NCBI GenBank assembly: GCA_040381975.1
Contig: JBEIGI010000008.1
Coordinates: forward strand, 33,679-97,678
Origin: Pirellula sp.
GTDB lineage: Bacteria; Planctomycetota; Planctomycetia; Pirellulales; Pirellulaceae
Length of the DNA: 64,000 nt
Direction of reading: 5' to 3'
Every line of letters begins with the position of its first letter. The stretch's first letter is position 1. The translations under genes were made by a program, and so were the position numbers. A model generated the notes under the pieces. That model worked only from the letters and a program-made list of their open reading frames with translations, made no database searches and had not been told where the DNA came from. Below, in pieces: positions 2-33,220 of this stretch.

Positions 2-1357
2 GCCCCAATACCCACTGAAGACTCCGTGGCATCTGGCGGTCTAGGGACATTGCCTCATTTTGCTCCTAAAGCAAAACGGGTGATCTATCTGCATATGGTC
101 GGAGGTCCTTCGCAGATGGATATCTACGACTACAAACCACAGATGAACGAGTGGTACGACAAGGATCTTCCCGAGACAGTACGAAATGGCCAGCGTTTAA
201 CAACGATGACCAGCGGACAGGCCCGTTTTCCGATCGCTCCGTCGATGTACAAATTCGCTCAGCATGGCAAGTGTGGCATGTGGGTGACAGAACTCCTGCC
301 CGAGACAGCCAAGGTCGTCGACGACCTTGGCTTCGTCAGGTCAATGCACACCGAGGCGATCAACCATGAACCTGCGATCACTTACATGCAGACTGGCAAC
401 ATGGTCACCGGTCGGCCCTGCATGGGTGCTTGGTTGTCCTACGGGTTAGGATCGATGAACAGCAACCTTCCGACCTTCGTGGTGCTTGTAGCAAATCCGA
501 CCAATACCGAGCAAATACAAGCGATCTCGGCGAGGCTTTGGTCGTCGGGTTGTTTGCCAGGGGAGCATGGAGGCTGTTGCTTCCGATCCGTTGGGGATCC
601 TATTCTGTATATCAACAATCCCTCCGGAGTTCCTACGGACATTCGCCGCAAGACCCTCGACGGACTCAAATCACTCAACGAAATGAATTTTCGAGCTGTC
701 GGCGATCCAGAGATTCACACTCGGATCCAGCAGTACGAACTCGCATTCCGTATGCAATCGAGCGTACCGGACTTGACCAACATCGCCGACGAACCCGAAA
801 GCACGATGGAGCTTTATGGTCAGGATGCGAAGAAGCCCGGTTCGTTCGCCAACTCTGTACTTTTGGCTCGAAGAATGATCGAACGAGACGTTCGGTTCGT
901 GCAAATCTATCTGAACAATTGGGATCACCATGGAAACGTCGCCAAGCGACTACCCTCGCAGTGCAAAGACATTGACCGAGCGACCTATGGTCTGATCACC
1001 GATCTAAAGAGCCGAGGACTCCTGGATTCAACTTTGGTCATTTGGGGTGGCGAATTCGGTCGAACCATCTATTCCCAGGGTGGACTGAGCAAAGACAATT
1101 ACGGTCGCGATCACCATCCGCGTTGCTTTACCATGTGGATGGCAGGAGGTGGAATCAAGGGTGGAACGATCTATGGTGAAACCGATGATTTTTCCTATAA
1201 CATCGTAAAGGATCCAGTTCATATTCGAGATTTCCACGCGACAGCCCTTCATCTTCTAGGAATCGACCATGAACGATTCACCTTCAAGAATCAAGGTCTT
1301 GATCTGAGGCTTACGGGTGTCGAAGAGGCTCGGGTCATCAAAGAACTCTTGGCTTAG
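2..1357 (+). CDS. DUF1501 domain-containing protein (sulfatase-fold family), 5' end cut by the window edge
   Basis: The frame is open back to position 2, and the ORF-track start at 26 is an internal GTG. The segment '[29 protein letters not shown]' and the C-terminal '[21 protein letters not shown]...[19 protein letters not shown]' are typical of DUF1501. The expected N-terminal Tat signal is missing, so the gene is truncated upstream. Confidence 0.8.
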
Positions 1358-1358
1358 G

Positions 1359-3824
1359 ATGATGCAAGCCATGAGGGCGTTAGGCTTGCGAATTCTGACG
1401 ATCGGTTTGTGGATTGGAACACTTATCCACGCGATGGCTCAAGAGCCTTCGCAAAAGCTGGATTTTTTCGAGAGCAAGATCCGACCTGTTTTGGTCGAGC
1501 GATGCTACGAATGCCATTCTGCTTCCGCAAGTATTTTACAAGGGAATCTCAGCCTCGAAACTCGCCAAGGGATCCTCGACGGAGGCGACTCTGGGCCCGC
1601 TGTGGTGCTAGGTAAACCTCATGAGAGCCTCTTGATCCGAGTCCTTCGAGATCAAGAGCCCAAGATGCCTCCTGACGGCAACTTGCCCGAAGGAATCGTC
1701 AGAGATTTTGAACGATGGATCGAGGAAGGACTAGTTGACACGAGAGATTCCGTTCCTGAAACAGCAAAAGGCATCAAAAAAAACTGGATCGATCCGGCAA
1801 TCGCTCAAAACCACTGGGCCTTTAAATCAATCAGCGAACATACCACTCCTGCCAATAGCCAGTGGGATATACCTAAAGTCATTCACCACAGATCGATCGA
1901 TGCCTATGTGCAAACGAAACTCAAAGCCAAAGGATGGGAGCCTGCGCCACAAGCAGAGCCTCTGGTAGTGCTTCGACGCATTACGCTTGGACTCACTGGA
2001 CTCCCTCCTAGCATCGAGGAAATAGAGACGTATTTAGCTGACCCAGAAGATTTGCGAGATGAAAAACTGATCGATCGATTGCTTGCAAGTCCTCAGTATG
2101 GAGTGCGATGGGGAAGGCATTGGCTAGACCTAGTACGTTACGCAAACAGCAATGGTGCCGATGAAAACCACGATATGCCCAACGCTTGGCGATTCAGGGA
2201 TTGGGTGGTCGATGCTTTGAATGAAGACCTCGCTTTCGATGAGTTTGTAACACATCAAATCGCGGGGGATCTACTACCTGCTCCCGAGGACGAGTCGGCT
2301 CGCAATCGACTCATCACTGCGACGGGGTTTTGGGTCTTGGGCCCAAAGATGCTTGCCGAGCAAGACAAAGAGAAGATGAAGATCGACATCGTCGATGAAC
2401 AAATCGACACTTTTTCCAGAACCATGCTAGGAATTACGCTCGCGTGCGCTAGGTGCCACGATCACAAATTTGACCCTTTCTCCCAACGGGATTACTACGC
2501 CATGGCCGGGATCTTCATGAGCACACGAACCATGGCCGATCAGGCGTTCGTAAGCCAATGGATGGAACGTCCCTTAATCACACAAACAAGAGAAGCACAA
2601 CGAGCCGAGTATCAGAAAAAGATCGATCAGGCGATTGATTCAAGCAAGATTCTTATAAAAGAAGCCCACGAGCAATTGCTCGCCGAAGGAAAGCTTGAGA
2701 AACTCCCTGACGATCCATCGGTACGTTTAAAAGATGGGCCATACAGCGAAGAAGTTAAAAAAAAGCTCGATCAATCTTCCAAAGAAATCGAAGAACTTCA
2801 AAAGGGTAAACCCGAGTTCGATCGGGCGATGGCCGTCGAGGAGCAAACGGCAGTCGAACTTCCCGTTCACTTACGTGGTAATCACCTCAAGCCCAGCGAT
2901 GAGAAGATCCCTCGAGGAATCCCAGTCGTGCTAACGAATTCCATCGGCATCGACACCATTGAGCCAAATCAAAGTGGGCGAATGCAATTGGCACGCTGGT
3001 TGACTCATCCTTCGAACCCCTTGTTCGCTCGCGTGATGGTCAACCGGGTTTGGATGTGGCATTTTGGACATCCGTTAGTAGGGTCACCTTCGAACTTTGG
3101 ATTGAAAGGAGAGCAGCCAACCCATCAAGATCTTTTGGACGATCTGGCAAATCGTTGGATCGAACATGGCTGGTCTCTCAAATGGTTGCATCGTGAGATC
3201 CTATTATCGGCAACCTACCGACGCGCGAGCCGCTACGAGGCGTATGCACAAGAGGACCCTGAGAATCGACTTTTGTGGAGGCAGAATCGCAAACGGCTCG
3301 AGATGGAACCCATACGCGACACACTCCTTGCATGTGCCGATAGGCTTGACGATCGCTTAGCACAGGGCGTGCATGGGGTGGAAAGTGCCAAGCGAAGCAT
3401 TTACCTGAATATCAATCGAGCGGCCTTGAACGACAATTTTGCCATTTTTGATTATGTGGATCCTGCAAGCCATATCGAGCAGCGACCCGTAACGAGTGTG
3501 CCGAGTCAGTCGCTTTTCTTTTTGAATAACGAACTAGTTTGGAAGTCATCCGAGAAACTAGGATCCGATCTAGCTGATCTTTCGCAGGACGAAAACCAAG
3601 CGATTTTCATGGCCTTCAAACGCGTACTTGGACGCGAACCATCTACGGGCGAACTCGATCGGTCTAAAACCTTCTTGGCTCAGGCGACCGAGTTTTGGAG
3701 TATTGAAATCAAGTCTACCGACGGCATAGATCCGCAGTCGTACAGCAAGACGATTCGATCCAAGGCCCTAGGGAGTCTGGTTCACAGTCTTTTCTCGCTT
3801 CGCGAATTCATTTGGGTGGAGTAG
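1359..3824 (+). CDS. PSCyt/DUF1549/DUF1553 protein (Planctomycete cytochrome-c-motif family)
   Basis: Signal peptide 'MMQAMRALGLRILTIGLWIGTLIHAMAQ' from the ATG at 1359. Heme-type CxxCH motif 'CYECH'. DUF1549-like 'IDAYVQTKLKAKGWEPAP...LLRRITLGLTGLPPS'. DUF1553-like 'ACARCHDHKFDP'. The ORF-track start at 1317 overlaps the upstream gene and precedes the signal peptide. Confidence 0.8.
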   Translation: MMQAMRALGLRILTIGLWIGTLIHAMAQEPSQKLDFFESKIRPVLVERCYECHSASASILQGNLSLETRQGILDGGDSGPAVVLGKPHESLLIRVLRDQEPKMPPDGNLPEGIVRDFERWIEEGLVDTRDSVPETAKGIKKNWIDPAIAQNHWAFKSISEHTTPANSQWDIPKVIHHRSIDAYVQTKLKAKGWEPAPQAEPLVVLRRITLGLTGLPPSIEEIETYLADPEDLRDEKLIDRLLASPQYGVRWGRHWLDLVRYANSNGADENHDMPNAWRFRDWVVDALNEDLAFDEFVTHQIAGDLLPAPEDESARNRLITATGFWVLGPKMLAEQDKEKMKIDIVDEQIDTFSRTMLGITLACARCHDHKFDPFSQRDYYAMAGIFMSTRTMADQAFVSQWMERPLITQTREAQRAEYQKKIDQAIDSSKILIKEAHEQLLAEGKLEKLPDDPSVRLKDGPYSEEVKKKLDQSSKEIEELQKGKPEFDRAMAVEEQTAVELPVHLRGNHLKPSDEKIPRGIPVVLTNSIGIDTIEPNQSGRMQLARWLTHPSNPLFARVMVNRVWMWHFGHPLVGSPSNFGLKGEQPTHQDLLDDLANRWIEHGWSLKWLHREILLSATYRRASRYEAYAQEDPENRLLWRQNRKRLEMEPIRDTLLACADRLDDRLAQGVHGVESAKRSIYLNINRAALNDNFAIFDYVDPASHIEQRPVTSVPSQSLFFLNNELVWKSSEKLGSDLADLSQDENQAIFMAFKRVLGREPSTGELDRSKTFLAQATEFWSIEIKSTDGIDPQSYSKTIRSKALGSLVHSLFSLREFIWVE

Positions 3825-3827
3825 AGG

Positions 3828-5204
3828 ATGAAACGGCGAAGTTGGCTCAAGGGAATCTGTCGGGGGCTCAGTGGGCTGGCGATTGCCGATTTACTCGCCC
3901 GAGAGATTGACAACTCGTGTCATGGTGCCATTGAGGATCAGGGATTAACCCCTGGATGCCACTTTCCACCGCGAGTCAAGCGAGTCATCCTTGTATTTAT
4001 GCACGGAGGACCCTCGCATGTGGATACCTTCGACTACAAACCTGAGCTCATACGATTGCACGGTCAACCTCTTCCGATAGCTAAACCAAGAATTCAGTTT
4101 GCTCAGACAGGGAATCTGCTCAAGAGCCCTTGGGAGTTCAAGCAGTACGGGGAGTCGGGGGCGTGGGTTAGCGACCTGTTTCCAAATGTTGCCAAGCATG
4201 TCGATCGACTGACGTTTATCAAATCGCTACATGGATCCAACGAGGCGCACGGTGGAGCGTTGCTCAAGATCCACACTGGTACCGATACGTTTGTTCGCCC
4301 GAGCTTGGGGGCTTGGGTCAGCTATGGTCTGGGAACTCAAAATACGAATCTGCCGAGTTTCATCACCATCAATCCTACATTGGGTCACGGTGGGGTAAGG
4401 AATTTCGGTTCAGCATTTTTACCCCCAAATCATCAAGGGACCAGGATCGCTGTTTCTGGGAAAGATGCCAGGATAGAGAACCTTGTACCCAAGTACTCCG
4501 ATCCACTGCAAAGATTACAACTCGACTATGTGCGGGATCTAGAACAACTGGGTCCAAGCAGCACGTTGGCTCAAGCACTCGATGCCAAAGAGAAAACCTA
4601 CGAACTGGCGTATCGAATGCAAAGCGAAGCGCTTGGTCGATTTCAAATCGATAGCGAGACCCAGGAGACTCTCAATCTCTACGGGATCGATGGCGGGCCG
4701 ACCGATGGATTCGGTAGGCAATGTCTATTGGCAAGAAGATTGAGCGAAGCGGGCGTCAGGTTCGTGCAGGTATCCCACGCATACTGGGATCAGCATGCGG
4801 AGCTCAAAGAGAAGCATGCGGAGTTAGCAACTCAGGTAGATCGACCGATTGCGGGTTTAATCGAGGACCTCCATCGCCGAAGCTTGCTAAGCGAAACCCT
4901 CCTGATATGGGGAGGGGAGTTTGGCCGAACACCCACAGCGCAAGGTGACAACGGTCGAGATCACAACCCCCATGCGTTCACCTGGTGGATGTGTGGGCCG
5001 GGGATCAAGCCAGGGTTTTCGTGGGGGCAATCGGACGACTTTGGTTTTTATGCCCAGCAGGACAAGGTGCATGTCCATGATTTGCATGCGACTCTGTTGC
5101 ATTTGCTCGGGATCGATCACGAGAAATTAACCTTCCGTTATGGAGGACGCGATTTCCGGCTTACAGATATCCACGGTCGCGTGGTTAAAGAATTGCTGAG
5201 CTGA
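3828..5204 (+). CDS. DUF1501 domain-containing protein with a Tat-like signal
   Basis: 'MKRRSWLKGICRGLSGLAIADLLA', 'PRVKRVILVFMHGGPSHVDTFDYKP' and 'GRDHNPHAFTWWMCGPGIKPG...[19 protein letters not shown]'. Paralogous to the first gene. Starts 3 nt after the DUF1553 gene. Confidence 0.85.
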   Translation: MKRRSWLKGICRGLSGLAIADLLAREIDNSCHGAIEDQGLTPGCHFPPRVKRVILVFMHGGPSHVDTFDYKPELIRLHGQPLPIAKPRIQFAQTGNLLKSPWEFKQYGESGAWVSDLFPNVAKHVDRLTFIKSLHGSNEAHGGALLKIHTGTDTFVRPSLGAWVSYGLGTQNTNLPSFITINPTLGHGGVRNFGSAFLPPNHQGTRIAVSGKDARIENLVPKYSDPLQRLQLDYVRDLEQLGPSSTLAQALDAKEKTYELAYRMQSEALGRFQIDSETQETLNLYGIDGGPTDGFGRQCLLARRLSEAGVRFVQVSHAYWDQHAELKEKHAELATQVDRPIAGLIEDLHRRSLLSETLLIWGGEFGRTPTAQGDNGRDHNPHAFTWWMCGPGIKPGFSWGQSDDFGFYAQQDKVHVHDLHATLLHLLGIDHEKLTFRYGGRDFRLTDIHGRVVKELLS

Positions 5205-5281
5205 TGTGTTATAATGGGGGAATTATCCACCAAGGGTTTTTCATTGTTGATATTTCAAAGACCAAAAGGGCAAAAAGCACC

Positions 5282-6271
5282 ATGGATCGTCGACGATTTT
5301 TGGCAGTCGGTACCGCAGCACCTGTAGTGGCGATGTCACTTGATGTTTCGAGTTTGATTGCAGGAGAGACATTCACAAGTATCGAGGCTGCTGGAGATCT
5401 CTACCGCCTACAGGGGGAATACCTTGGTGTCGTCGGAACGCTCGATGGGACTTGGGGCGCTCAGGTGATCGCTACCTCGGACAAGACACTCCAAGTGCAT
5501 CTATTGAAGGGTGGGTTGCCAGCAGATGGATTCAATTCCAAAGAACCTACGCGTGTGTGCAAGGTCGATCGGGTAGAGAGCTCCTTGGCCAAAGGCAAAG
5601 AAGGGGATTACAGCGTCAGTATTGATGGCAAGACGTTGACGGTGACTGATGGCGAAGGAAAGAAACTCGGTGAGTTGACCAAGGTGATCCGAGAGAGCAA
5701 GACGCTCGGGAGCGAACCACCCAAGGGAGCGTTGGTACTCTTTGATGGAAGTAGCCCCGAAAAGTTTGAGGGCGGGAAGCTTGTCGACGGAAAATATCTT
5801 GGAGTCGGTTGCAAGTCCAAGGAAGCCTTCGGAGATCATCGATTGCACTTGGAATTTCGCACGCCGTTTCAGCCTGGTGATTCGGGTCAGGGTCGTGGAA
5901 ACAGTGGAGTGTATATCCAAGGCCGGTACGAATTGCAGGTGCTCGATTCTTTTGGCCTTCGAGGAGAGAACAACGAATGCGGTGGAATCTATCAGATCGC
6001 TAGTCCCAAACTCAACATGTGCTATCCGCCGCTGAGTTGGCAGACCTATGACATCGATTTTAAGGCGGCAAAGTTCGATGCAGATGGCAAGAAAACCACC
6101 AATGCCAGGGTGACCATTCGGCACAATGGGGTTGTGATCCATGACGATTTGGAGTTCCCTCGGGGTACACCAGGAGGCGTCGGTGGTGAAGCACCTGAGC
6201 CTGGTCCGCTGTACCTTCAAGACCACTCCAACCCAGTGGTCTATCGGAATATTTGGATCTCGAAACCCTAA
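5282..6271 (+). CDS. DUF1080 (3-keto-disaccharide hydrolase family) protein with a Tat-type signal
   Basis: 'MDRRRFLAVGTAAP' at the ATG at 5282. C-terminal 'NSGVYIQGRYELQVLDSFG...NECGGIYQ...VYRNIWI' is the usual DUF1080 signature. Confidence 0.75.
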   Translation: MDRRRFLAVGTAAPVVAMSLDVSSLIAGETFTSIEAAGDLYRLQGEYLGVVGTLDGTWGAQVIATSDKTLQVHLLKGGLPADGFNSKEPTRVCKVDRVESSLAKGKEGDYSVSIDGKTLTVTDGEGKKLGELTKVIRESKTLGSEPPKGALVLFDGSSPEKFEGGKLVDGKYLGVGCKSKEAFGDHRLHLEFRTPFQPGDSGQGRGNSGVYIQGRYELQVLDSFGLRGENNECGGIYQIASPKLNMCYPPLSWQTYDIDFKAAKFDADGKKTTNARVTIRHNGVVIHDDLEFPRGTPGGVGGEAPEPGPLYLQDHSNPVVYRNIWISKP

Positions 6272-6411
6272 TAGAAACATCGGATCAGTCGATCTGCATC
6301 CAACAAACACGCGTTTTCTCTATTGCCCCCAAACTCCCATTTTTGGTATCAGCAAGGGCGGTTCTCTGATTTGCAAGAGAGCTTCCCCTGGTACCAATCC
6401 GGAGTTTACGC

Positions 6412-7863
6412 ATGCGAAAACCCAAACAAACCTCAATTCGTATTGCATCGCTGCTTGGACTGCTGGCTTTTTGCACTCCTTCAATCCTAGCGCAGAACTC
6501 GCTACCAACGATTCCCGGAGTTCCTCCTTCAGGCGGAACTGTTCCAGGAACCTCACCTGTTTTACCACCGTCTAGCTCCGGTTCGTCAAGCGAGCCGATC
6601 CCACGCGTCCCGAGCATCGAGGGACTTCAATCTCCGCCTAGTAGTATTCCATCAAATCCTGCGGCCAATCCAGTACCTTCAACGAGCCCCCCGGTCGGTT
6701 CGGCTAGTGATGTGCCCGCCGCTGCCCCTCCAAATAACCTCGGTGTCAAAGTCCATCAACGACTCGAACTGCCAAACGATGCCGGTCAGTACTGGGTCGA
6801 ATACGACCTGAAGCCCTATACGCAAGCATTGAAGAATGTGGATCGGCCTCAGCAAGCGGTCATCGACTGGATTATTCGCGAGACAGGAAGCGATCTTTGG
6901 TTTCAAGAACCGGTTGGAATCCTCACCGCCGACCGTAGCACCTTACGTGTCTACCACAACGCGGGTATGCAAAAAGTAGTCGCACAGGTCTATGAGCGAT
7001 TTGTCAACGGAATCAATGAGCCTCAAGTCTACAGCTTACGCCTGATCACCATCGGAAATCCCAATTGGCGGTCCAAAGCTCTTCCGCTTATGCGTTCGGC
7101 TACTGCACGGTCTCCTGGCGTCTCGGCTTGGCTGATGCCTAAGGAAAACGGAGCCATTGTCATGGCTCAGCTTCGCCAACGCCAAGATGTGCGAGAAGTC
7201 CAATCGATTGACCTGAGAATGGTCCAAGGTCAAACGCAAGTGATCGAACAAATGAAACCTAGGAATTATCTCAGAGAATACAGTCCCAATACGACTTCGG
7301 CTTGGCCACCACTGACCCCGACTTATGGCGAAGTTCAAGAGGGATTCCGGATGGTCTTTAGCCCGTTGCTTAGTCTCGATGGCAACACGATGGACATGAT
7401 GCTCAAATGCAACGTGGATCAAGTTGAGAAGATGAATCCTGTGCCTCTTGAAGTTCCCGGTGCCGGGGGGGCTTATCAAGTCGAAGTTCCTCAAATGATC
7501 TCATGGAATCTCGCAGAGCGATTTCGATGGCCGACAGACCACTTGCTGATTCTCTCCTGTGGTGTGATCGCGCCACCGGTTGTCAACCAACAGAACACTC
7601 TCTTAACTGGAGGAGCTGCTGGTTTGTTTGGTATCAATCGAATCTTGCCAGATTTGACCTTTCAAAAACAGGACGCAATTTTGGTGATCGAATACCGAGG
7701 AGCAGCTTCGACGCAGCTTACCCCAGCATCTGTTGCAGGCTCCGCGGGTGCGGTTCCGAGTGTTCCTGGAGCCGGGCCACCAGGATCAACAATTCCAGGA
7801 GCGACCGCTGGAGCAATCGTTCCTGGAGTAGCTGGCGGTAATAGCCTTCGAGGACGTTATTAA
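6412..7863 (+). CDS. Secreted hypothetical protein with a P/S-rich N-terminus and a C-terminal half with a secretin-like strand pattern
   Basis: Clear signal peptide 'MRKPKQTSIRIASLLGLLAFCTPSILAQ', followed by a low-complexity Pro/Ser stretch. Later segments 'VQSIDLRMVQGQTQVIEQ', 'GFRMVFSPLLSLDGNTMDMMLKCNV', 'VEVPQMISWNLAERFRWPTDHLLILSCGVI' and 'GLFGINRILPDLTF..DAILVIEYRG' resemble the secretin C-domain pattern. This is a by-eye judgement only. Confidence 0.6.
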   Translation: MRKPKQTSIRIASLLGLLAFCTPSILAQNSLPTIPGVPPSGGTVPGTSPVLPPSSSGSSSEPIPRVPSIEGLQSPPSSIPSNPAANPVPSTSPPVGSASDVPAAAPPNNLGVKVHQRLELPNDAGQYWVEYDLKPYTQALKNVDRPQQAVIDWIIRETGSDLWFQEPVGILTADRSTLRVYHNAGMQKVVAQVYERFVNGINEPQVYSLRLITIGNPNWRSKALPLMRSATARSPGVSAWLMPKENGAIVMAQLRQRQDVREVQSIDLRMVQGQTQVIEQMKPRNYLREYSPNTTSAWPPLTPTYGEVQEGFRMVFSPLLSLDGNTMDMMLKCNVDQVEKMNPVPLEVPGAGGAYQVEVPQMISWNLAERFRWPTDHLLILSCGVIAPPVVNQQNTLLTGGAAGLFGINRILPDLTFQKQDAILVIEYRGAASTQLTPASVAGSAGAVPSVPGAGPPGSTIPGATAGAIVPGVAGGNSLRGRY

Positions 7864-7869
7864 TCCACT

Positions 7870-9291
7870 GTGAAACCAGAGCAACTTTGGCCATCGATTT
7901 TTTGGTCCAATTGGATTTCGATCGCCCTAGCTGCATGCTTGCTGTTTGCCGTAAACGCTTATTCGCTACTTCGATTTGACGGCAACGATTCACCTCCATT
8001 ACCGCATGGGGATGGACCAGATTACGAGTCGATTGCCTACAGCCTATCGGTGGGTTCCGGCTTTGAGTTCGCATGGGAGGATCCGCAGTGGCAAGCTCCT
8101 TACCGTACTTCCAACCAATCAGCACAGTACACTCAGTTGCAACGACGCGATTGGCCCGGCCCAACCACCTCGCGGCCCCCTGCCCTCCCCTTTCTTATCA
8201 GCCTAGTCTATCGATTGATGCCGCGAGGCCCGATCGCTTTTTCATGTGTACGTTGGCTCTCAGCATTAGCACTTACGATCGCAGGACTCTTGGCAATCTG
8301 GCTTGCCTTTGATTGGACTAAGCGAATTTTTCATGGCTCTGAAAAGCAAAACCATAGAGGCCTCTTGCTCTGTAGTGTTGCCTTCGGCGTGACGCTCGGA
8401 ATCGCAGTCATGGATCGAACCATCAAGACATTCATGCACGATTTTTTAACCGAACCTTGGGCATTGCTCGGAGTCACTGCCACGATTGTAGCTTTGTTGC
8501 AGTGGACAAAAGCCCCTGCCAAGTTGCTATGGATTATCACAGCAGGAGTCTTGTTAGGTGTGATCGTACTGTTTCGATCAATCTTTGTTTTCTGGTTACC
8601 CATCCTGGTACTTGGGATCGCGATTGTGAGTTACAAAACTCAAGTCAACCGGAATCGGTGGTGGTCGAGCATGTCTGTTTTTATTGCCGCTTTCTTGCTC
8701 GTTGTAACGCCTTGGTGGGGTCGCAATTGCATGCTGACCGGTAGGATCAGGCCCATGGGATCCCAGGGCGCAGCGAGTCTTCGTGGGGGGTATTGCGATG
8801 AGGCTTTGGCAGACTGGGGCAACTGGCATGCCGACGCAGAGATCGCCATGCAGGCCAAACTCGACGGCATCCCTGATTCCGAAAAATGGACGGCATCGCA
8901 GCGAGAAGTCGCCTTAGCCGATTTAGCCACCAAAGAAATCGGAGATTGGATCAAGTCGCACTGGAGGGATCTTCCAAGGCTCTGTGCGATGCGATTGGCC
9001 TCGCATTGGGGGCCTTGGCGATTAGATCATCTGCTCTGGAAATTCTCAGCTTTCGTGGGACTGATTTGGGTATGGCGCAGCTATCCTCGCCAGGGAATCA
9101 TCTTAGCTAGCATCTTTCTGGCCGACAGCTTAACAATCGCCTGCTTGTACGAGGCCGGTGGCCGGTTTTTGATCCCTTTGCATGCTGTTTTATATGCGTT
9201 GGCAGGGGTGGGCCTAGCAGGTTGTCTTGCGTTGCTTATGAAAAATCCTGTACACCTGCGGGATGAACGCCAGGAGCAATCGACAGGATGA
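7870..9291 (+). CDS. Polytopic membrane protein, GT-C / ArnT-PMT-like (GT39/GT83-type) glycosyltransferase
   Basis: GTG start 6 nt after the upstream stop. About 10 hydrophobic segments. The first loop, 'HGDGPDYESIAYSLSVGSGFEF', resembles the D-x-x-Y...G-x-G-F loop seen in COG1807-type glycosyltransferases. Confidence 0.5.
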   Translation: MKPEQLWPSIFWSNWISIALAACLLFAVNAYSLLRFDGNDSPPLPHGDGPDYESIAYSLSVGSGFEFAWEDPQWQAPYRTSNQSAQYTQLQRRDWPGPTTSRPPALPFLISLVYRLMPRGPIAFSCVRWLSALALTIAGLLAIWLAFDWTKRIFHGSEKQNHRGLLLCSVAFGVTLGIAVMDRTIKTFMHDFLTEPWALLGVTATIVALLQWTKAPAKLLWIITAGVLLGVIVLFRSIFVFWLPILVLGIAIVSYKTQVNRNRWWSSMSVFIAAFLLVVTPWWGRNCMLTGRIRPMGSQGAASLRGGYCDEALADWGNWHADAEIAMQAKLDGIPDSEKWTASQREVALADLATKEIGDWIKSHWRDLPRLCAMRLASHWGPWRLDHLLWKFSAFVGLIWVWRSYPRQGIILASIFLADSLTIACLYEAGGRFLIPLHAVLYALAGVGLAGCLALLMKNPVHLRDERQEQSTG

Positions 9292-10303
9292 TCGACGTAA
9301 GTGGGGCAAATTCTCGTCTTCGGGGATTGTGCTACGCTCTGCGATGGTCGCTTGCGTGCTCTGGATCGCAGTCGCCCACGCATCGACGGCGTCGGGGCAA
9401 ACCGACTCGCACATCAGTCGATCTTTGAATCAGCGGAATGCATCGACGCAAAGCGCCGTGCAACCAGCGTCAAGCGGATACGCGACAGGACAAGTCACAG
9501 GGCAGAGAGAACCGGAGGTTTTTCGACCTTCTGCCGCACCGATTTTGCCCGAGACGATCGAACGACTGAGCAAGAGTGATTCGAAGAGAGGCGAGAGTTG
9601 GTTGCAGGGAGCTGAACAATGGGTAGGCCCCAAAGGACTCTCTCAATCGATTCAAACTCTGTTGCTTTTGACTCTATTGAGTGCTGCTCCTGCTGCGATC
9701 CTGATGACAACCTGTTACGTGCGGGTTGTGATTGTTTTGGGTGTGCTCAAACAAGCACTTGGTAATCAGCAGTTACCTCCGACACAAGTACTCAGTGGAA
9801 TCTCTTTGTTTATCACCTTGTTTGTGATGAGCCCTGTGTGGAAGCAAGTCTATGACGAAGCGATTGTACCTTACACCGCACAAGACAGCACCATGGGAGC
9901 CGACCAAGCCTGGGAGCGTGGCATTGCACCTGTGCATCGCTTTATGGCTAGACAAATTGCGATGGCCGGAAATTACGAAGATGTCCATTTGTTCTATAGC
10001 AGGCATGCTCCGAATACCGCTGCACCAGAGAACTATGAAAGTGTACCGCTGATTGTTCTGTTGCCTGCGTACATGCTCAGCGAATTGAAAACAGCGTTTT
10101 TGATGGGATTCCAGATCTACTTACCCTTCCTGGTCTTGGACTTGGTAATCGCATCGGTCATCGCCTCGATGGGTTTGTCGCAATTATCCCCTGCGACGAT
10201 ATCGATACCCTTTAAGTTGTTGCTATTTGTATTGGTCGATGGCTGGCGGCTCGTCGTGCAAATGCTGCTCGATAGCTTTGGAACCGTCAGTGGTACGCTC
10301 TAG
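9263..10303 (+). CDS. fliP: Flagellar/T3SS export-gate protein FliP (SctR family) with an extended N-terminus
   Basis: 'LLLLTLLSAAPAAILMTTCYVRVVIVLGVLKQALGNQQLPPTQVL', 'LLPAYMLSELKTAFLMGFQIYLPFLVLDLVIASV' and 'ISIPFKLLLFVLVDGWRLV'. The start is uncertain: 9263 overlaps the upstream gene, and the ATG at 9344 gives 'MVACVLWIAVAHASTASG'. Confidence 0.9.
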   Translation: MNARSNRQDDRRKWGKFSSSGIVLRSAMVACVLWIAVAHASTASGQTDSHISRSLNQRNASTQSAVQPASSGYATGQVTGQREPEVFRPSAAPILPETIERLSKSDSKRGESWLQGAEQWVGPKGLSQSIQTLLLLTLLSAAPAAILMTTCYVRVVIVLGVLKQALGNQQLPPTQVLSGISLFITLFVMSPVWKQVYDEAIVPYTAQDSTMGADQAWERGIAPVHRFMARQIAMAGNYEDVHLFYSRHAPNTAAPENYESVPLIVLLPAYMLSELKTAFLMGFQIYLPFLVLDLVIASVIASMGLSQLSPATISIPFKLLLFVLVDGWRLVVQMLLDSFGTVSGTL

Positions 10304-10316
10304 AGATTTACAAAAG

Positions 10317-10601
10317 ATGGTTACTCAGGATGCTGTGGATTTGGTGCGAGGGTCATTGCTTCAGGCGTTAATGATTGCAGGACCATTGCTGCTCATCGCT
10401 CTCGTGGTTGGTTTGATACTAGGTATCTTACAAACAGCCATGCAGATCCAGGACTCGACCGTAGCGATGATTCCACGTTTGATTCTGTTAAGCCTAGTAC
10501 TCATGCTGCTGTTGCCTTGGATGGCCGATCGACTCGTTGGCTACTCCAAAGAAAGGATCTTGGAAATACCATCGGTTGTTTCAGGCAAAGGCACGCCATG
10601 A
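10317..10601 (+). CDS. fliQ: Flagellar/T3SS export-gate protein FliQ (SctS family)
   Basis: A 94-aa protein from the ATG at 10317: 'MVTQDAVDLVRGSLLQALMIAGPLLLIALVVGLILGILQTAMQIQDSTVAMIPRL'. This two-TM hairpin is typical of FliQ. Confidence 0.85.
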   Translation: MVTQDAVDLVRGSLLQALMIAGPLLLIALVVGLILGILQTAMQIQDSTVAMIPRLILLSLVLMLLLPWMADRLVGYSKERILEIPSVVSGKGTP

Positions 10602-11440
10602 ATGCGTTGATTGCAATAGGCCTAGAGTCCATGCTTTGGTGCTATGCCTGCATCGCGTTGCGACTCTTGCCCATTCTTGCCACCTTGCCTCCATTCTCAT
10701 TTGGGGCTGTATCATGGATGCTACGATGCCTTCTGCTCTCGATGGTATGTCTATCCATCACTCCTTTGATGGGCCAACAAGTAAGGATTGAACTTCCGAG
10801 CACACTTGGAGTCGGATTGGGTATTCTGACAAGTGAGTTTCTATTTGGGTCAGCCATCGCGCTGAGCATTCATTTGTTCCTATCCGCTTTTCAGACGGTG
10901 GGTAACTCCCTTGCGGAACTATCTGGATTGAGTTTCGATGACACCTCGGACGATGCAGGAATAGCCAACCAAATCCAACGGGCATTGGCATGGATCGCTG
11001 GCACTCTATTCGTGTTATGCGGTGGCCATCGTTGGGCTCTGAAGATTGTCCTGGAGAGCTTTGATCGGTTTCCGCTTGGATCGGGATTAGATACCACAGA
11101 GTTGCTCTACCTAGTTCCTCTGCACTTAGGCCAAGCCCTATCGATCGCGCTGCGAATCGCGTTGCCAGCCGCCCTGGTGATCGTCTTGGTGGGCATCGCG
11201 AAATCTTGGATCATGCGATCCTTGAAAGCATGGGACAGCATTGCAATTGGTGCCCCAATACAGACCGTCGGTCTGGTTTGGGGATTGCTCTTATCCCTAA
11301 GCGCCATGGGCTGGCTTTTTCAACATGAGATAGCAGTCTGGATGGACAAGACCCAACGGACCGTTCTCGAACCACAGCAATGGAGTTCCTCCAAAGGCAC
11401 ATCGAGCGCAGAGAGTCAGCGGGTGGGTAAAGATGGCTGA
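10598..11440 (+). CDS. fliR: Flagellar/T3SS export-gate protein FliR (SctT family)
   Basis: ATGA start/stop overlap with fliQ at 10598-10601. Polytopic protein: 'ALRLLPILATLPPFSFGAVS...', 'LESFDRFPLG'. The position between fliQ and flhB fits FliR. Confidence 0.75.
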   Translation: MNALIAIGLESMLWCYACIALRLLPILATLPPFSFGAVSWMLRCLLLSMVCLSITPLMGQQVRIELPSTLGVGLGILTSEFLFGSAIALSIHLFLSAFQTVGNSLAELSGLSFDDTSDDAGIANQIQRALAWIAGTLFVLCGGHRWALKIVLESFDRFPLGSGLDTTELLYLVPLHLGQALSIALRIALPAALVIVLVGIAKSWIMRSLKAWDSIAIGAPIQTVGLVWGLLLSLSAMGWLFQHEIAVWMDKTQRTVLEPQQWSSSKGTSSAESQRVGKDG

Positions 11441-12176
11441 GTCTATTGAGAGCAAAAAACATCCCGCCACAGCACTCAGGCGCCGGCGAGCCCACGACGA
11501 GGGTGTATTCCCACGAAGTCAAGAGTGGACCGTTGCCCTCACGTGGCTCGCAGGTATGGCGATGCTGCAATCAGTCGGCCCCTACTCCTTTAGGGTGCTC
11601 TCGGGGATGCTCGATCAAAGGCTTGGTCAAGTTCGCTTCAGTGATGAAACCACAGCGCATTGGAACCAAGGACTTTGGCACTGCGCGATCCAAGCCGGAC
11701 AGGCAATCCTACCGTTGCTTGCAGGTCTTTTTTGTATGGGATTGGCGGTGCATTTCGCTCAAGCTGGTTTTCGTTTTCGCCTGGATCGCTTGGCATGGGA
11801 TTCGGGACGACTCATGCCAAGATTCAACGCCCCTTGGAATACCGATGCTTGGGTGCCTGTGCTGAGCGGGTTACTCAAACTGGCATTGATTTTGGGGGTT
11901 CTTGGATTTGGAACGACAAGCCGAATGGCAGAGTTTGCATCCTGGAGCGAGTTACCCTTAGAGATAGGGTTCAAGGCTCTTTGGCAGTTTCTTCTCGAGC
12001 TTGGATGGTACCTTGGATTGGGTTGGTTGGTCTTGGCTGGAGCCGACTACTCTTGGAATTACTGGCGACACGAGCGGGCTTTAAGAATGACCGACAGCGA
12101 ACTTCGCGAGGAACTCAGGGAGACTCAAGGCGACCCAAGTTTGCGATCCAGACGCCGCCGCATACTATCCGACTGA
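11433..12176 (+). CDS. flhB: FlhB/SctU-family export switch protein, transmembrane N-terminal part only (no NPTH domain)
   Basis: 8-nt overlap with fliR. The N-terminus 'KKHPATALRRRRAHDEGVFPRSQEW' matches the FlhB 'EKTEEPTPKR..AREEGQV.RS.E' region. The protein ends at 'MTDSELREELRETQGDPSLRSRRRRILSD*', the linker just before the point where NPTH normally follows. Confidence 0.75.
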   Translation: MAESIESKKHPATALRRRRAHDEGVFPRSQEWTVALTWLAGMAMLQSVGPYSFRVLSGMLDQRLGQVRFSDETTAHWNQGLWHCAIQAGQAILPLLAGLFCMGLAVHFAQAGFRFRLDRLAWDSGRLMPRFNAPWNTDAWVPVLSGLLKLALILGVLGFGTTSRMAEFASWSELPLEIGFKALWQFLLELGWYLGLGWLVLAGADYSWNYWRHERALRMTDSELREELRETQGDPSLRSRRRRILSD

Positions 12177-13851: not shown

Positions 13852-15075
13852 TCAATTCCAAGCCAAGACGATCCATCTCCATGCACAGACGTGAACAAAT
13901 AGAGTACCGGTCCAAATCGCCAGTGCAATAACCCGCAGAGGGAAAACAAGACTCTCATCACTTTTCCTTCTCGAAAGCCAACCGCAGCCAAACATCGCCA
14001 ATAGAGTGCCGATAAGACTCACGGGCACCATGGCTTGCCAACCGAACAGGCTTCCGGCAAGCAAGTGCAGAATCGTCCAATGCCAAATCCAGCCGTTGTT
14101 TCGCAAGTCGTCTTGCTGGGTTTGCTCTGGATCCTTCAAGTAGTAGCAAGTTAGAAGTCGGGCGGTAAGAAGTGCAAGACAAACTCCCGCCAAAGCCCCC
14201 AAACTTGAGGTGATAGCGCGGTCGATGTACTGCGGTGAACGAGTTAAAAATCTCTCCCCCCATGGCTCCGTCCAAGCAACACGAAGGAGGGTTGGATTGG
14301 CGATGCAACTTGCAAAGTAGATTCCAAGGACAATGATTAATGGAAGTTTAGGAAATCTCAAACGCTCTGATTGAGTTCCGATGAGCATTACTGAGATAGC
14401 AAACAGACTTAGATGAACGGCAAGAGCACCGATCAAATCCCACTTCGGATAAAAAACCGTAAACGCGATTCCGGCACCAAATCGCCAATCGCGGTACGGA
14501 AGATTGATCCCATTTCCAATAAGTTCTAGGGTGCCTAGTATGACAAATATCAAGCCGACAATGATCTCCAAGATCAAGTAGCGAGGTGATATCGGCAATC
14601 GGCATGCACGGCATCGACCGCGCAGAAGAATCCATCCAAACACTGGCGAATTGTCGATCATATTCAGTGGCTTATCGCAAAATGGGCAATGCGAACCTCG
14701 CGAAACGATTGTCTTCTTTCGCGGTGTTCTGCTGGCGACGACGTTGATGAAACTGCCGATGCTGGCACCTAAATAAAAGAACCAGAAGACGAACCAGTAT
14801 TCGACCGTTCGGCGGATAAACCAAATCGCAGACGAAATCTCTGGATCTTTCGGACTAAACTTCCATTTCGATGTTGCGATTTTTTGCCTGATATAAAGTT
14901 GCGGCAGGACCACCGAATAGAGGATCCATCCGGCCAAAAGAGTTCCTAGCAGAAGCATCAATGGCCAATCTCGACGAAACGAGATGATGCTCTTTCGACG
15001 TTTGGGAAGACCGATCGGTTCATCGACAAAGTCTGGTTGCACCTGGGGCTCTTCCCCCGAAAGCCAGTCGCTCAA
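13852..15075 (-). CDS. Prepilin peptidase-like (A24 family N-terminal zinc-finger region) polytopic membrane protein
   Basis: 'SFINVVASRTPRKKTIVSRGSHCPFCDKPLNMIDNSPVFGWILLRGRCRACRLPISPRYLILE' is the CxxC...CxxC PilD-type N-terminal domain. Several TM segments follow. I could not find the canonical GxGD(V/F)K motif by eye. Confidence 0.65.
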   Translation of the reverse strand: MSDWLSGEEPQVQPDFVDEPIGLPKRRKSIISFRRDWPLMLLLGTLLAGWILYSVVLPQLYIRQKIATSKWKFSPKDPEISSAIWFIRRTVEYWFVFWFFYLGASIGSFINVVASRTPRKKTIVSRGSHCPFCDKPLNMIDNSPVFGWILLRGRCRACRLPISPRYLILEIIVGLIFVILGTLELIGNGINLPYRDWRFGAGIAFTVFYPKWDLIGALAVHLSLFAISVMLIGTQSERLRFPKLPLIIVLGIYFASCIANPTLLRVAWTEPWGERFLTRSPQYIDRAITSSLGALAGVCLALLTARLLTCYYLKDPEQTQQDDLRNNGWIWHWTILHLLAGSLFGWQAMVPVSLIGTLLAMFGCGWLSRRKSDESLVFPLRVIALAIWTGTLFVHVCAWRWIVLAWN

Positions 15076-28121: not shown

Positions 28122-28411
28122 GGGTTGAAGGGATCTCTCAGGTTTTTGAAATTCCGGGGGATTTCGCGATGAAGGCAATATTCTTTGGTGTCATGCGTCC
28201 ATGAAATTCGACGACACATGGTATATCTTGGAAAACAGCCTTTTCGATCGGAAGTTAGTTATCCCGTTTCTAAAGATCAAATTCAACCCTCAAAATCCTA
28301 GAACAAATTCGACGATGGTTGAATTTGTTGCTAAAATCAGGCCCGATGCGCGATGCATCATCCCACCCTACTTCCCCGTTTTTCGCTCTAACCCCTTCTG
28401 TGCGAATCGCT

Positions 28412-29794
28412 ATGCTCCAATCTCTCCGCTTCGTTTGGAATACCCCTTGGTCCGGCTTGGCATTACAAGCCGTGGCTTGTGTTTCGTTCGTTTTTTCTGG
28501 GAATAGCCCTGCAAAAGCCGGCGATCCGGTCGAGCTTTTTAACGGCAAAGACTTCTCCGGTTGGCACGGTCGCCCAACGGTCGATCCTCGCAAATGGGAA
28601 TCGACTCCAGAGGCCGACAAGACCAAGTGGAATCAGGAGATCGCCGATCACTGGAAGATCGATGGGAATGAAATCGTCAACGATGGCAAGGGTGCTTACT
28701 TGACGACCAATGCCGAGTTTGGCGATTTCGACCTGACTTTGGATTTCAAAATCGTTAAGGATTGCGATTCAGGGATTTACCTCCGAGGCATACCCCAGGT
28801 ACAGATTTGGGATCCCGATGCTGAGAACAATCGCAAGAACGGCAACGAAAAAGGGAGTGGTGGTCTTTGGAACAATCCCGCCGGCTGGGCTGGCAAAGAT
28901 CCTTTGGTGCGGGCCGACAATCCGGTTGGACAATGGAACACCATCAAGATGCGATTGGTTGGAGAACGCTGCTGGGTGTGGCTCAACGACAAAGCCGTTG
29001 TGGTCAACGCTCGATTGCACGATTACTTTGCTCCTGGTCAACCGCTGATCAAACGCGGACCGATTCAACTCCAAACCCACGGTGCCGAGATCCGCTTCCG
29101 AAACATCAAGCTCAAGGAGTTCAGCGATCTGGAATCCAACGAAATCCTGAGCAAATCCGAAGCCGACGAAATTTCCAAGAGCTCCTCGAAGTTTAATGTC
29201 TTGTTCAATGGCAGTGACTTAGCTGGCTGGAAGGGTGCCACTGGGAATTACACCGTATCGGAAGGTGCGATTCAGTGCACGCAAGGCAAAGGCGGAGTGC
29301 TCTACACCGAGAAAAGCTACGGCGACTTTGTCTTTCGGTTCGATTTTCAGCTACCTCCTGCCGGCAACAATGGGATTGCGATCCGCTACCCTAGCGTCGA
29401 GGAAATCGAGCAATTGCCCAAGGATCTTCGCCATGGCGATGCGGCTTATGTTGGCATGACCGAACTTCAAGTGCTCGATGACGGCCACCCGAATTACAAG
29501 ACGATTGATCCGCGTCAAGCCCACGGCAGTGCTTATGGAATGGCGGCGGCCAAGCGTGGTTATTTGCGTCCGACTGGCCAGTGGAACCACGAGATCATTA
29601 CGGTCACGGGTTCGAAGATTCAAGTCGAGCTCAACGGCACGCGGATCCTGGATACCGACTTGGCCACCATCAGTGAGTACATGAGCAACACGCCCCATCC
29701 AGGCAAGGATCGCGCCAGCGGCCACATCGGCTTTGCCGGCCACTCCGATCCTGTGAAGTTTCGCAATATCGAAGTTGTTCCGATGGGCAATTAG
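28412..29794 (+). CDS. Secreted protein with two tandem DUF1080 (3-keto-disaccharide hydrolase family) domains
   Basis: The signal peptide starts at the ATG at 28412. Two copies of the motif set: 'LFNGKDFSGWHG...DSGIYLRG.PQVQIWD...IRFRNIKL' and 'LFNGSDLAGWKG...NNGIAIRY...ELQVLDD...VKFRNIEV'. Confidence 0.8.
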   Translation: MLQSLRFVWNTPWSGLALQAVACVSFVFSGNSPAKAGDPVELFNGKDFSGWHGRPTVDPRKWESTPEADKTKWNQEIADHWKIDGNEIVNDGKGAYLTTNAEFGDFDLTLDFKIVKDCDSGIYLRGIPQVQIWDPDAENNRKNGNEKGSGGLWNNPAGWAGKDPLVRADNPVGQWNTIKMRLVGERCWVWLNDKAVVVNARLHDYFAPGQPLIKRGPIQLQTHGAEIRFRNIKLKEFSDLESNEILSKSEADEISKSSSKFNVLFNGSDLAGWKGATGNYTVSEGAIQCTQGKGGVLYTEKSYGDFVFRFDFQLPPAGNNGIAIRYPSVEEIEQLPKDLRHGDAAYVGMTELQVLDDGHPNYKTIDPRQAHGSAYGMAAAKRGYLRPTGQWNHEIITVTGSKIQVELNGTRILDTDLATISEYMSNTPHPGKDRASGHIGFAGHSDPVKFRNIEVVPMGN

Positions 29795-29815
29795 TTTCCC
29801 AACGGCCCGACCCTC

Positions 29816-30949
29816 TTGAGTCTCGTTACGAAAGGTTTCGACTTGAATCGCAGATTGCTTGGCTATGGTTTGTCGGCTAGTTGTTTGGCTGGCTTTTTTA
29901 CAACAGCAGGTAGTGGGTTTGTTTTTGGTCAGGAGACCAAGACGACTTCGGATGACAATACTCTGGTGATTCCAGAGTCGGTCGCATCGACCCAGGAGCA
30001 GATGAAGCCTTATGCGGAACTTGTTGAGCATTCGCCGCCAAAAATCGAGATGATTCCGATCCCCGGAGGGACTTTTCGCATGGGAAGTCCCGACGGTCAG
30101 GAGAGTCGTAAAGAGGATGAGGGCCCTGTTCACGAGGTCAAACTCAGCCCGTTTTGGATGGCCAAATGCGAGATCACTTGGGATGCTTACGATGTTTGGA
30201 TGTCCGATTTGGATGTCTTTTATCGAGAGGTCAATAAGGTCAAGGCTACCAAGCGCGATGAGCTTTCCGAAGAATTTCAAAAAAGCCAGCCGACGAAGCC
30301 TTACACGGACATGACCTTCGGGATGGGCAAGCATGGTTATCCAGCCATCTGCATGACTCAGCATGCGGCCAGAACTTTTTGCAAATGGCTCTCGCGCAAG
30401 ACAGGACGTTACTATCGTTTGCCCACCGAGGCCGAATGGGAGTACGCTTGCCGGGCTGGAACAACAGAATCTTATTCGTTTGGATCGGATCCGTCCGAAC
30501 TAGAGAACTACGCTTGGTTCGTTGACAATGCCGGAGAAGGTTACCACAAAGTCGGGCTCAAGAAGCCCAATCCTTGGGGCCTTCATGACATGCATGGCAA
30601 CGTGGCCGAATGGGTTTTGGATCAGCACACCCCCGAGGGTTACTCAACGGATCTTCGCAGCGAGAATCCTTTGTTGGTACCCAAGACCCTATACCCTCGC
30701 GTCGTACGCGGTGGGGGTTGGAACCAAGACGCAGCGGCACTTCGAAGCGGTGCCCGCGAGGGCTCGACTGAGGATTGGATTGCCCAGGACCCACAGTCGC
30801 CTGTGAGCATCTGGTATTTGACCGACGCATTGCATGTCGGATTTCGGATTGTTCGTCCGTTGAACGAACCGAGCGAAGAAGAAAAAAACACTTTCTGGGA
30901 GTATTCCGAGCCGATCCAAAAGGAACGGCCAGTGCCCCTCGAACGATAA
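29816..30949 (+). CDS. Formylglycine-generating enzyme (SUMF1/FGE-sulfatase) family protein
   Basis: 'GGTFRMGSP', 'YRLPTEAEWEYACRAGT', 'GLHDMHGNVAEWVLD' and 'VVRGGGW'. TTG start per the ORF track. Confidence 0.8.
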   Translation: MSLVTKGFDLNRRLLGYGLSASCLAGFFTTAGSGFVFGQETKTTSDDNTLVIPESVASTQEQMKPYAELVEHSPPKIEMIPIPGGTFRMGSPDGQESRKEDEGPVHEVKLSPFWMAKCEITWDAYDVWMSDLDVFYREVNKVKATKRDELSEEFQKSQPTKPYTDMTFGMGKHGYPAICMTQHAARTFCKWLSRKTGRYYRLPTEAEWEYACRAGTTESYSFGSDPSELENYAWFVDNAGEGYHKVGLKKPNPWGLHDMHGNVAEWVLDQHTPEGYSTDLRSENPLLVPKTLYPRVVRGGGWNQDAAALRSGAREGSTEDWIAQDPQSPVSIWYLTDALHVGFRIVRPLNEPSEEEKNTFWEYSEPIQKERPVPLER

Positions 30950-32448: not shown

Positions 32449-32719
32449 CGATTAAATCCTTGGGTTTTGGTTCTACTGGCGTCCTGATTTCGCGTTAAAT
32501 CGCCATAAAAACAAGGGTTTTGTGAAATGAAGGCCCTTGGGTATCGCAATGTTTTTCACCGGACTGCTCGCGCCGTTCCGCTCCTAGAGCAACACATTTT
32601 GCTGGGTGAGAACGACACTTGCACGGTTGGACTTGTGGCTATTTTTCAATGGATTTACACTGCTTGTTTGTTATTTGTGTCCAATTTCCAGCTCGGTCGA
32701 GACCGAGCTCCGAGGCTTC

Positions 32720-33211: not shown

Positions 33212-33220
33212 GATAAGCCT

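Follow-up and report, generated by a model that had tools for sequence, protein, structure and literature searches.

A divergent flagellar-type export gate whose FlhB stops before the switch domain, encoded downstream of a putative envelope gene pair in Pirellula-like planctomycetes

The closest described relatives of the genes considered here form the flagellar export gate, FliP5Q4R1-FlhB in Salmonella and Vibrio (PDB 6f2d, 6s3l), and the injectisome gate, in which proteins of the same superfamily (SctR/S/T/U) are paired with a secretin-fold protein, SctC. A 64,000-nt stretch of a Pirellula sp. genome (assembly GCA_040381975.1, contig JBEIGI010000008.1, positions 33,679 to 97,678; hereafter the window) encodes the same four families in the flagellar gene order, fliP-fliQ-fliR-flhB, directly downstream of two genes that we call gene 1 and gene 2 (Table 1). 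This gate, and those like it in relatives, which we call T-type, retain the conserved C-terminal helix of FliP (PFKLLLFVLVDGW) and the N-terminal and transmembrane regions of FlhB. They differ from the Salmonella and Vibrio gates in lacking the NPTH-type autocleaving domain of FlhB, in replacing the MMM of the FliP methionine loop with LSQ, MSQ or MTQ, in FliQ, FliR and FlhB scores that fall below the equivalog cut-offs, and in an additional ~80 aa at the FliP N terminus. The locus is probably a lineage-specific operon fusion that carries a modified gate of flagellar lineage in a freshwater Pirellula-like clade.

FlhB of the window comprises the four-helix membrane domain (PF01312, positions 2-235 of 335, E = 3.4e-41), and its open reading frame (ORF) stops in the linker that follows (...GDPSLRSRRRRILSD, with the end RRRRILSD); the autocleaving cytoplasmic switch domain is absent. 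A first-pass annotation, made from the letters of the window alone, had likewise recognized only the N-terminal part of FlhB. A motif scan and tblastn with a canonical Pirellulaceae C-domain, covering all frames of the window, found neither an NPTH or NPEH motif nor an FlhB C-domain, and the same two methods found no separate C-domain in the other loci checked. Database searches with FlhB gave 17 clusters with lengths of 246-253 aa and identities of 48-98%; the next matches were abruptly longer, full-length proteins of 359-370 aa that are only 33-36% identical. When 13 T-type sequences were aligned, all had the same stop point, 4-10 residues past the RRRR of the linker, and the complete ones measured 246-253 aa. 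A 2.9-kb metagenome contig (L121) encodes, at 26-688, a deeper T-type FlhB whose identity to the others is 33-39% and whose end lies in the same linker. Because this protein is so divergent yet ends where the others do, the T-type is older than the clade in which the six-gene array is visible. The L121 flhB is followed by a convergent gene for an SGNH-like hydrolase, which we rejected as a homolog of the SASA-family esterase encoded downstream of flhB in the window; the two are not homologous.

That the FlhB C-domain can occur as a polypeptide of its own is shown by stand-alone homologs described by TIGR00789 ("FlhB-like flagellar biosynthesis protein"), a model that also matches the C-domain of canonical FlhB. 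Such a homolog is the complement that a split FlhB would need, but neither the window nor the loci checked yielded one. Two proteins encoded 3′ of flhB in relatives (C49 and C50) were considered as a split C-domain and rejected, being YajC and SecDF. A literature search on planctomycete FlhB found nothing relevant.

The second conserved alteration lies in FliP. Salmonella and canonical Pirellulaceae have an M-loop of G-M-M-M-(L/V)-P-P, whereas every T-type member has G-(L/M)-(S/T)-Q-L-S-P; in place of the conserved MMM stands LSQ in the FliP of the window and either MSQ or MTQ in its relatives. The first and third methionines of the loop are 99% conserved among ~2500 FliP sequences, and the rare natural variants with fewer loop methionines were flagged by the authors of that survey as uninvestigated (Hüsing et al., PMC8239009). 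In Salmonella, secretion remains partly intact when positions 2 and 3 of the loop are polar, but the pore then leaks ions (PMC8239009). Judged by these residues, the methionine gasket of the T-type FliP has turned polar.

To compare the T-type with its nearest complete counterparts, we used a canonical set consisting of FlhB P0201, P0205, P0206 and P0207 of Pirellula-like genomes and loci L085-L097 and L102-L106. The canonical Pirellulaceae loci are stand-alone fliP-fliQ-fliR-flhB operons with unrelated neighbors, a FliP of 306-316 aa and an FlhB of 362-370 aa. As seen in L086, L094, L096 and L102, they share with the window the four-gene layout, the long FliP N terminus and the lack of a recognizable fliO. 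Because the canonical loci have them as well, these features, which the first-pass annotation had treated as unusual, are by this comparison family traits, not anomalies. Unlike the T-type, the canonical operon encodes an FlhB with a C-domain and a FliP with MMM, and neither gene 1 nor gene 2 lies within 10 kb of it (one locus has a distant GT-C protein of 24% identity). In canonical FlhB (L086, L094, L096 and L102; P0198-P0207), the autocleavage motif reads NPTE in place of NPTH (VVVTNPTELAVAL). Planctomycetes are not mentioned in a literature survey of FliO.

By sequence, the gate is flagellar-type, not injectisome-type. FliP (PF00813, 3.8e-68) scored 225.8 against TIGR01103 fliP (cut-off 217.45, passed) and 179.5 against yscR (cut-off 208.6, failed). 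FliQ (PF01313, 3.5e-22) scored 75.6 against flagellar TIGR01402 (cut-off 88.9) and 53.6 against SctS (cut-off 76.5), and FliR (PF01311, 1.3e-26) scored 89.0 against flagellar TIGR01400 (cut-off 168.6) and 34.2 against SctT (cut-off 163), all four of which failed the cut-off. FlhB reached 108.5 with the flagellar model (TIGR00328), below the equivalog cut-off, and 90.9 with SctU (cut-off 358, failed). The flagellar NCBIfam score therefore exceeded the Sct score for all four proteins, and relative L008 has the same pattern. For canonical Pirellulaceae, the flagellar models gave 90.1 for FliQ and 158.3 for FliR, compared with T-type FliR scores of 89.0 and 76.2; the T-type Sct scores were lower still. 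Among solved structures, the window FliP matched FliP with 180-188 bits and SpaP with 121-124 bits. The closest full-length relatives of FlhB are the FlhB proteins of Pirellula metagenome-assembled genomes (MAGs), of the Pirellulaceae flagellar kind, and in the tree built from the FlhB membrane domain, the T-type is monophyletic, sister to the canonical Pirellulaceae clade and marked by long internal branches. The injectisome reading is unsupported because the family scores, the structure matches of FliP, the nearest FlhB relatives and the FlhB tree all point to the flagellum. A non-flagellar SctRSTU module with an outer membrane secretin, raised in the first-pass annotation, thus does not describe this gate. 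No SctV, SctN, SctJ/D, SctC or needle families were found among the window ORFs of at least 180 aa or in the inspected flanks of relatives. A further difference from the injectisome is that gene 1, although InvG is among its fold matches, matches neither Secretin (PF00263) nor Secretin_N (PF03958) in sequence and in relatives mostly lies apart from any gate. In a plasmid collection, the sole FlhB match was a Klebsiella FlhB of 27% identity.

Divergence from the canonical gates is uneven across the four proteins. T-type and canonical FliP are 57-70% identical, versus 73-81% among three canonical lineages; the corresponding values are 43-49% versus 75-77% for FliQ, 29-33% versus 61-70% for FliR and 32-37% versus 66-71% for FlhB. 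Ratios of nonsynonymous to synonymous substitution rates (dN/dS), calculated against L005, were 0.07-0.13 for the four gate genes (flhB, 0.08-0.12), 0.07-0.08 for gene 1 and 0.21 for gene 2. These ratios indicate that all six genes are under purifying selection and that the T-type is not decaying. T-type FlhB was found in GCA_046090945.1 and GCA_046309435.1 and canonical FlhB in GCA_046344995.1, GCA_046318955.1, GCA_040396935.1 and GCA_965189215.1; the two sets do not overlap in this small number of assemblies, which are incomplete MAGs.

The gene 1 product has a signal peptide, as expected of a secreted protein, and a Pro/Ser-rich low-complexity linker, both family-wide in the alignment. After the N-terminal linker, the family has a (V)PSIE-type motif at residue 66, in which the P-S pair is invariant, then a conserved core of ~310 aa (about residues 120-432) and, placed after a variable low-complexity tail, an invariant C-terminal tetrapeptide RGRY. 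Gene 1 has no match in Pfam (E up to 0.1) or NCBIfam, Pfam searches with ten long family members added nothing, and the family profile found no solved secretin in the PDB at E up to 10. An AlphaFold2 model built from 20 sequences (predicted local distance difference test [pLDDT] of 70-90 in the core) contains two alpha/beta domains and then long beta-hairpins. Compared with the PDB by Foldseek, this model gave secretins as all of its top 17 matches (BfpB at 8.8e-7, followed by PilQ, InvG, GspD and pIV), with a probability of 0.9-1.0 for the nine best, yet the template modeling (TM) scores were low (~0.2). The earlier description of gene 1 as secretin-like is supported by this model for the predicted fold and is unsupported as a statement of family membership. 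Like BfpB, PilQ, InvG, GspD and phage pIV, the gene 1 product is predicted to combine domains resembling the alpha/beta ring-building domains with long beta-hairpins; unlike typical secretins, it is much shorter, lacks a Pfam Secretin match and has invariant motifs of its own ((V)PSIE and RGRY). Homologs number 727 at 90% clustering, all unnamed or "hypothetical" and from Pirellula and other Planctomycetota, and at 50% identity the family falls into 614 clusters within a library of 1.84 billion representatives. A fusion of gene 1 with a ketoacyl synthase was set aside as probably a gene-calling artifact of the gene 1-fabF neighborhood described below. Literature searches on crateriform structures plus secretin, and on L/P rings in Planctomycetes, found nothing relevant.

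Gene 2 encodes a polytopic membrane protein that has no Pfam or NCBIfam match of its own. Its homologs are annotated "ArnT family glycosyltransferase", and 4 of 25 match PMT_2 (best 2.2e-7). The AlphaFold2 model (pLDDT 89.5, predicted TM score 0.88) has as its top Foldseek matches STT3, ArnT, AglB, PglB, ALG9, AftB and Pmt4, with a probability of 1.0, whereas a gene 2 family profile gave no sequence-level match to solved structures. The ArnT/PMT-like assignment proposed earlier is thus supported by the predicted glycosyltransferase C (GT-C) fold and by the annotated homologs, with the protein's own sequence lying below Pfam and NCBIfam detection. With GT-C enzymes (ArnT, PMT/PMT_2, STT3/PglB/AglB, ALG9 and AftB), gene 2 shares the membrane core, but it has no large soluble C-terminal domain. 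The first extracytoplasmic loop contains an invariant G-D-G-x-D-Y-E motif at residues 47-53, and D48, D51 and E53 are invariant in 25 sequences; by analogy with GT-C enzymes, these residues may be catalytic. GT-C glycosyltransferases use lipid-linked sugar donors. The Ser/Pro/Thr-rich linkers of the adjacent gene 1 product may be O-glycosylation targets of this enzyme.

Synteny was examined with one genome per species, in the best 80 of 305 loci that contain a gene 1 relative. Only the clade nearest the window (L005, L007, L008, L010, L011 and L012) has the full six-gene array, and there the gene order proposed for the window is conserved. Two further, sister clades have gene 1 and gene 2 without fliP, and all remaining loci have gene 1 alone. 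In the gene 1 tree, the full-array clade is monophyletic, and its sister is a clade in which gene 1 and gene 2 are followed by a convergent gene. In the next clade out, gene 2 is followed by genes for a GNAT protein (Acetyltransf_6), a family-2 glycosyltransferase and a Bac_transf sugar transferase. Farther away within the Pirellulaceae, fabF-nusA-infB-rbfA or other unrelated genes follow gene 1. From the synteny and the gene 1 tree together, it follows that gene 1 is widespread in a usual context unrelated to flagella, that gene 2 joined it first and that the fli cassette came later. Gene 1 looks like a core gene of Pirellulaceae, and its distribution, mostly alone beside unrelated genes, does not bear out the earlier suggestion that it is a T3SS (type III secretion system) accessory.

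The linkage is strict when viewed from the gate. A metagenome scan with a T-type FlhB profile yielded 15 loci, and in every one that extends far enough upstream the array is complete (L107, L110 and L115-L120); the shorter ones start inside gene 2, and the upstream context of L121 is off its contig. Wherever its context is visible, the divergent gate without the FlhB switch domain is therefore seen only inside the six-gene array, and an ordinary dispersed flagellar locus, the default of the first-pass annotation, is too simple a description. Downstream of the T-type flhB, two variants occur, a convergent SASA esterase gene (as in the window) or yajC-secDF. In the window, yajC-secDF-aspS is located at 32606-38286; in several relatives (L008, L011, L012 and L098 were compared), it lies directly 3′ of flhB. 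The ~20 kb between flhB and yajC in the window and its closest relatives (12228-32600 in the window) looks like a lineage-specific insertion or rearrangement. This stretch holds the esterase gene, an A24 peptidase-like gene, holA, an extracytoplasmic function (ECF) sigma factor/kinase pair and ATP-binding cassette (ABC) transporter genes.

A small gene of a different kind occurs beside both gene 1 and a canonical gate. It encodes a secreted Cys-rich protein of 152-167 aa with a weak TRASH-domain match and is located just 3′ of gene 1 in L035 (11548-12051) and just 5′ of canonical fliP in L096 (7170-7628), with 74% DNA identity between the two. The shared gene may be left over from an earlier gene 1-fliP neighborhood, or its two positions may be coincidental. 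It was also considered as FliO or YajC and rejected, being a TRASH-like Cys-rich protein.

The ORF list of the window confirms six tightly packed genes on the + strand with the junctions described in the first-pass annotation. The gene 1/gene 2 gap is 6 nt, and gene 2 and fliP overlap by 29 nt, or are separated by 52 nt if FliP starts at Met28. A 13-nt gap separates fliP from fliQ, fliQ and fliR share an ATGA overlap, and fliR and flhB overlap by 8 nt. The only sizeable gap precedes the array and is a candidate promoter region, although a simple scan found no sigma-70-type match in these 140 nt. Simple scans also gave no excess of terminator-like or sigma-70-like sites within the array, a weak test for a planctomycete. 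In freshwater metatranscriptome assemblies, short, low-depth contigs cover all six genes, with matches to gene 1, gene 2, fliP and flhB, one contig that spans gene 2/fliP (9215-9448) and one that spans fliQ/fliR (10533-10683). Contigs of two independent runs begin at 6399 and 6403, ~10 nt 5′ of the gene 1 start codon, which weakly hints at a transcription start; the contigs at 6399-6572 have the highest depth in the region. The six genes are probably cotranscribed, and the RNA contigs are compatible with one transcript.

Table 1. Positions of the six-gene array and associated features in the window.
Feature	Position	Strand	Remarks
Intergenic region 5′ of gene 1	6272-6411	+	140 nt; sole sizeable gap before the array
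Gene 1	6412-7863	+	483 aa
Gene 2	7870-9291	+	473 aa; GTG start
fliP (T-type)	9263-10303	+	346 aa; signal peptide, extra N-terminal segment of ~80 aa and FliP core; alternative start possible at 9344 (Met28)
FliP M-loop region	10172-10192	+	G-L-S-Q-L-S-P
fliQ (T-type)	10317-10601	+	94 aa
fliR (T-type)	10598-11440	+	280 aa
flhB without C-terminal domain	11433-12176	+	247 aa

Pfam searches of the window's other ORFs of at least 180 aa found no further flagellar or type III genes, with flhA, ATPase, C-ring, rod, hook and flagellin genes all missing, in agreement with the first-pass annotation, and the next gene 3′ of flhB is, as also stated there, a convergent esterase, here assigned to the SASA family by Pfam. 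Two genes 3′ of flhB in the window's subclade is a gene (13852-15075, - strand) for a 407-aa membrane protein that matches only the prepilin peptidase N-terminal domain (A24_N_bact), with no match reported to the Peptidase_A24 catalytic domain. Directly 5′ of gene 1 is a gene for a protein with a 3-keto-disaccharide hydrolase domain (5204-6271), a position that is kept in the gene 1-gene 2 clades. Sets typical of planctomycetes, with DUF1501 beside PSCyt1/PSCyt2/PSD1 proteins, occur at 26-5204 and 28319-30949; the same stretches encode proteins with 3-keto-disaccharide hydrolase domains and an FGE-sulfatase protein.

The window also encodes a canonical secretin of 1292 aa (44687-48565, - strand) with five Secretin_N repeats and a Secretin domain, on which the first-pass annotation was silent. 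It adjoins genes for a 364-aa protein without a Pfam match (43541-44635, - strand) and a BON-domain protein (42640-43617, + strand), and no ATPase or platform genes of type II secretion or type IV pili were found near it. Aligned with this secretin by hhalign, gene 1 gave a probability of 0.1%, a weak test, as the template consisted of one sequence.

In the operon fusion that we regard as probable, the first module is an older, conserved Pirellulaceae envelope pair, the secreted secretin-fold product of gene 1 and the GT-C product of gene 2. The second is a fliP-fliQ-fliR-flhB cassette derived from the Pirellulaceae flagellar export gate and placed directly 3′ of gene 2 in one clade. As the alignments indicate, the cassette has lost the FlhB cytoplasmic domain, acquired a polar FliP gasket and diverged strongly in FliQ, FliR and FlhB. 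We tentatively propose, at somewhat less than an even chance, that the T-type gate still serves flagellar export in swarmer cells, with the role of the FlhB C-domain supplied in trans or bypassed. FliP5-FliQ4-FliR1 and the FlhB membrane domain would then form the inner-membrane export channel of the swarmer-cell flagellum, and a domain encoded elsewhere would take over substrate docking and switching, unless these steps are bypassed. Genes 1 and 2 would serve the envelope in a way of their own, such as a role related to glycans or the glycosylation of gene 1's Ser/Pro-rich linkers, and the promoter would be all that they have in common with the gate. Several points weigh against this proposal. 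We know of no precedent for a flagellar gate without the FlhB C-domain, and the motif scan and tblastn recovered no separate C-domain in the window or the loci checked. According to PMC8983047 and PMC7064499, early substrates dock at the C-domain, which also switches specificity, and FlhB is called essential in model systems. The Salmonella pore leaks ions when M-loop positions 2 and 3 are polar (PMC8239009). The gap between T-type and canonical FliR and FlhB (~30-37% identity, compared with 61-71% among canonical proteins) fits a change of function or a paralog, and the RNA evidence is thin, with DNA carry-over possible.

A paralogous second gate is an unlikely alternative to continued flagellar export, and one to which the same divergence gives support. 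Here the canonical fliPQR-flhB would be kept for the flagellum, and the T-type would be an old duplicate with another task, an alternative gate isoform or a channel for other substrates, in which the switch domain is dispensable because the gate never has to switch. Loss of the C-domain and replacement of 99%-conserved methionines (PMC8239009) are in line with such a duplicate. So are its position as sister to the compact canonical Pirellulaceae clade, with long internal branches, the strong and uneven divergence (FliR 29-33%, FlhB 32-37%), the purifying selection that is maintained nonetheless, and the L121 FlhB, which at 33-39% identity makes the type old. However, no assembly has both gate types, in a small sample of incomplete MAGs, and to our knowledge a FliPQR-FlhB core without its own FlhA, membrane/supramembrane (MS) ring and ATPase is not known to function by itself. 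It is quite unlikely that the gate is instead a relic of a lost flagellum, in a clade that builds none and has repurposed a trimmed gate core for another membrane function. Such reuse of flagellar T3SS remnants has been reported for bacteria without flagella. In favor of a relic, the lost switch domain matters only for the ordered export of rod, hook and filament, the gasket sequence is relaxed or altered, and flagellar T3SS parts are reported to have other roles in Lysobacter enzymogenes OH11 (PMC7277350) and in the Bacillus subtilis nanotube "CORE" (PMC6456723). Against it, a dN/dS of ~0.1 and conservation over deep divergence speak against simple decay, and FliP still scores above the strict flagellar equivalog cut-off. 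We consider it improbable that the gate has become a flagellum-derived protein-conducting channel that builds no flagellum, lacks the switch domain, has an altered gasket and cooperates with a gene 1 product, which gene 2 may glycosylate, in a novel envelope-spanning export system. Least probable is a flagellum-derived machine in which the T-type gate, the gene 1 product in the outer membrane and gene 2 form a single envelope-spanning whole. The strict association of the T-type gate with gene 1-gene 2 wherever context is visible, the tight junctions, RNA contigs that cross gene 2/fliP, the predicted secretin-like fold of gene 1 and the injectisome's own pairing of a flagellar-type gate with a secretin all favor such a machine. 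Set against these are a gene 1 family that is Pirellulaceae-wide and mostly far from fli genes, beside housekeeping genes (fabF-nusA-infB), a gene 1-gene 2 pair that predates its junction with fliPQR, and a gene 2 that in a sister clade sits with glycan-synthesis genes. Moreover, the 64 kb contain no FlhA/SctV, ATPase, ring or needle/rod genes, and all gate proteins are further from the Sct models than the canonical flagellar ones are. Because its family is mostly found far from any fli gene, gene 1 would have a core role that is independent of the gate.

If a joint export system did exist here, its evolution would parallel the way in which the injectisome arose. Gene 1, by its predicted structure, defines a large secretin-fold family (the 614 clusters noted above) without a Pfam match, and the T-type FliP is a natural polar variant of a 99%-conserved M-gasket, of the kind flagged as uninvestigated (PMC8239009). 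The conserved absence of the FlhB C-domain is the most interesting feature of the locus because in model systems this domain is where early substrates dock and where specificity is switched (PMC8983047, PMC7064499). In type III export, the FlhB/SctU cytoplasmic domain is seen as essential and universal, and the T-type appears to be a natural lineage without it in cis that is held under purifying selection. Its conserved absence suggests either that the domain can be supplied in trans or bypassed, or that a FliPQR-FlhB membrane core can be active outside flagellar assembly.

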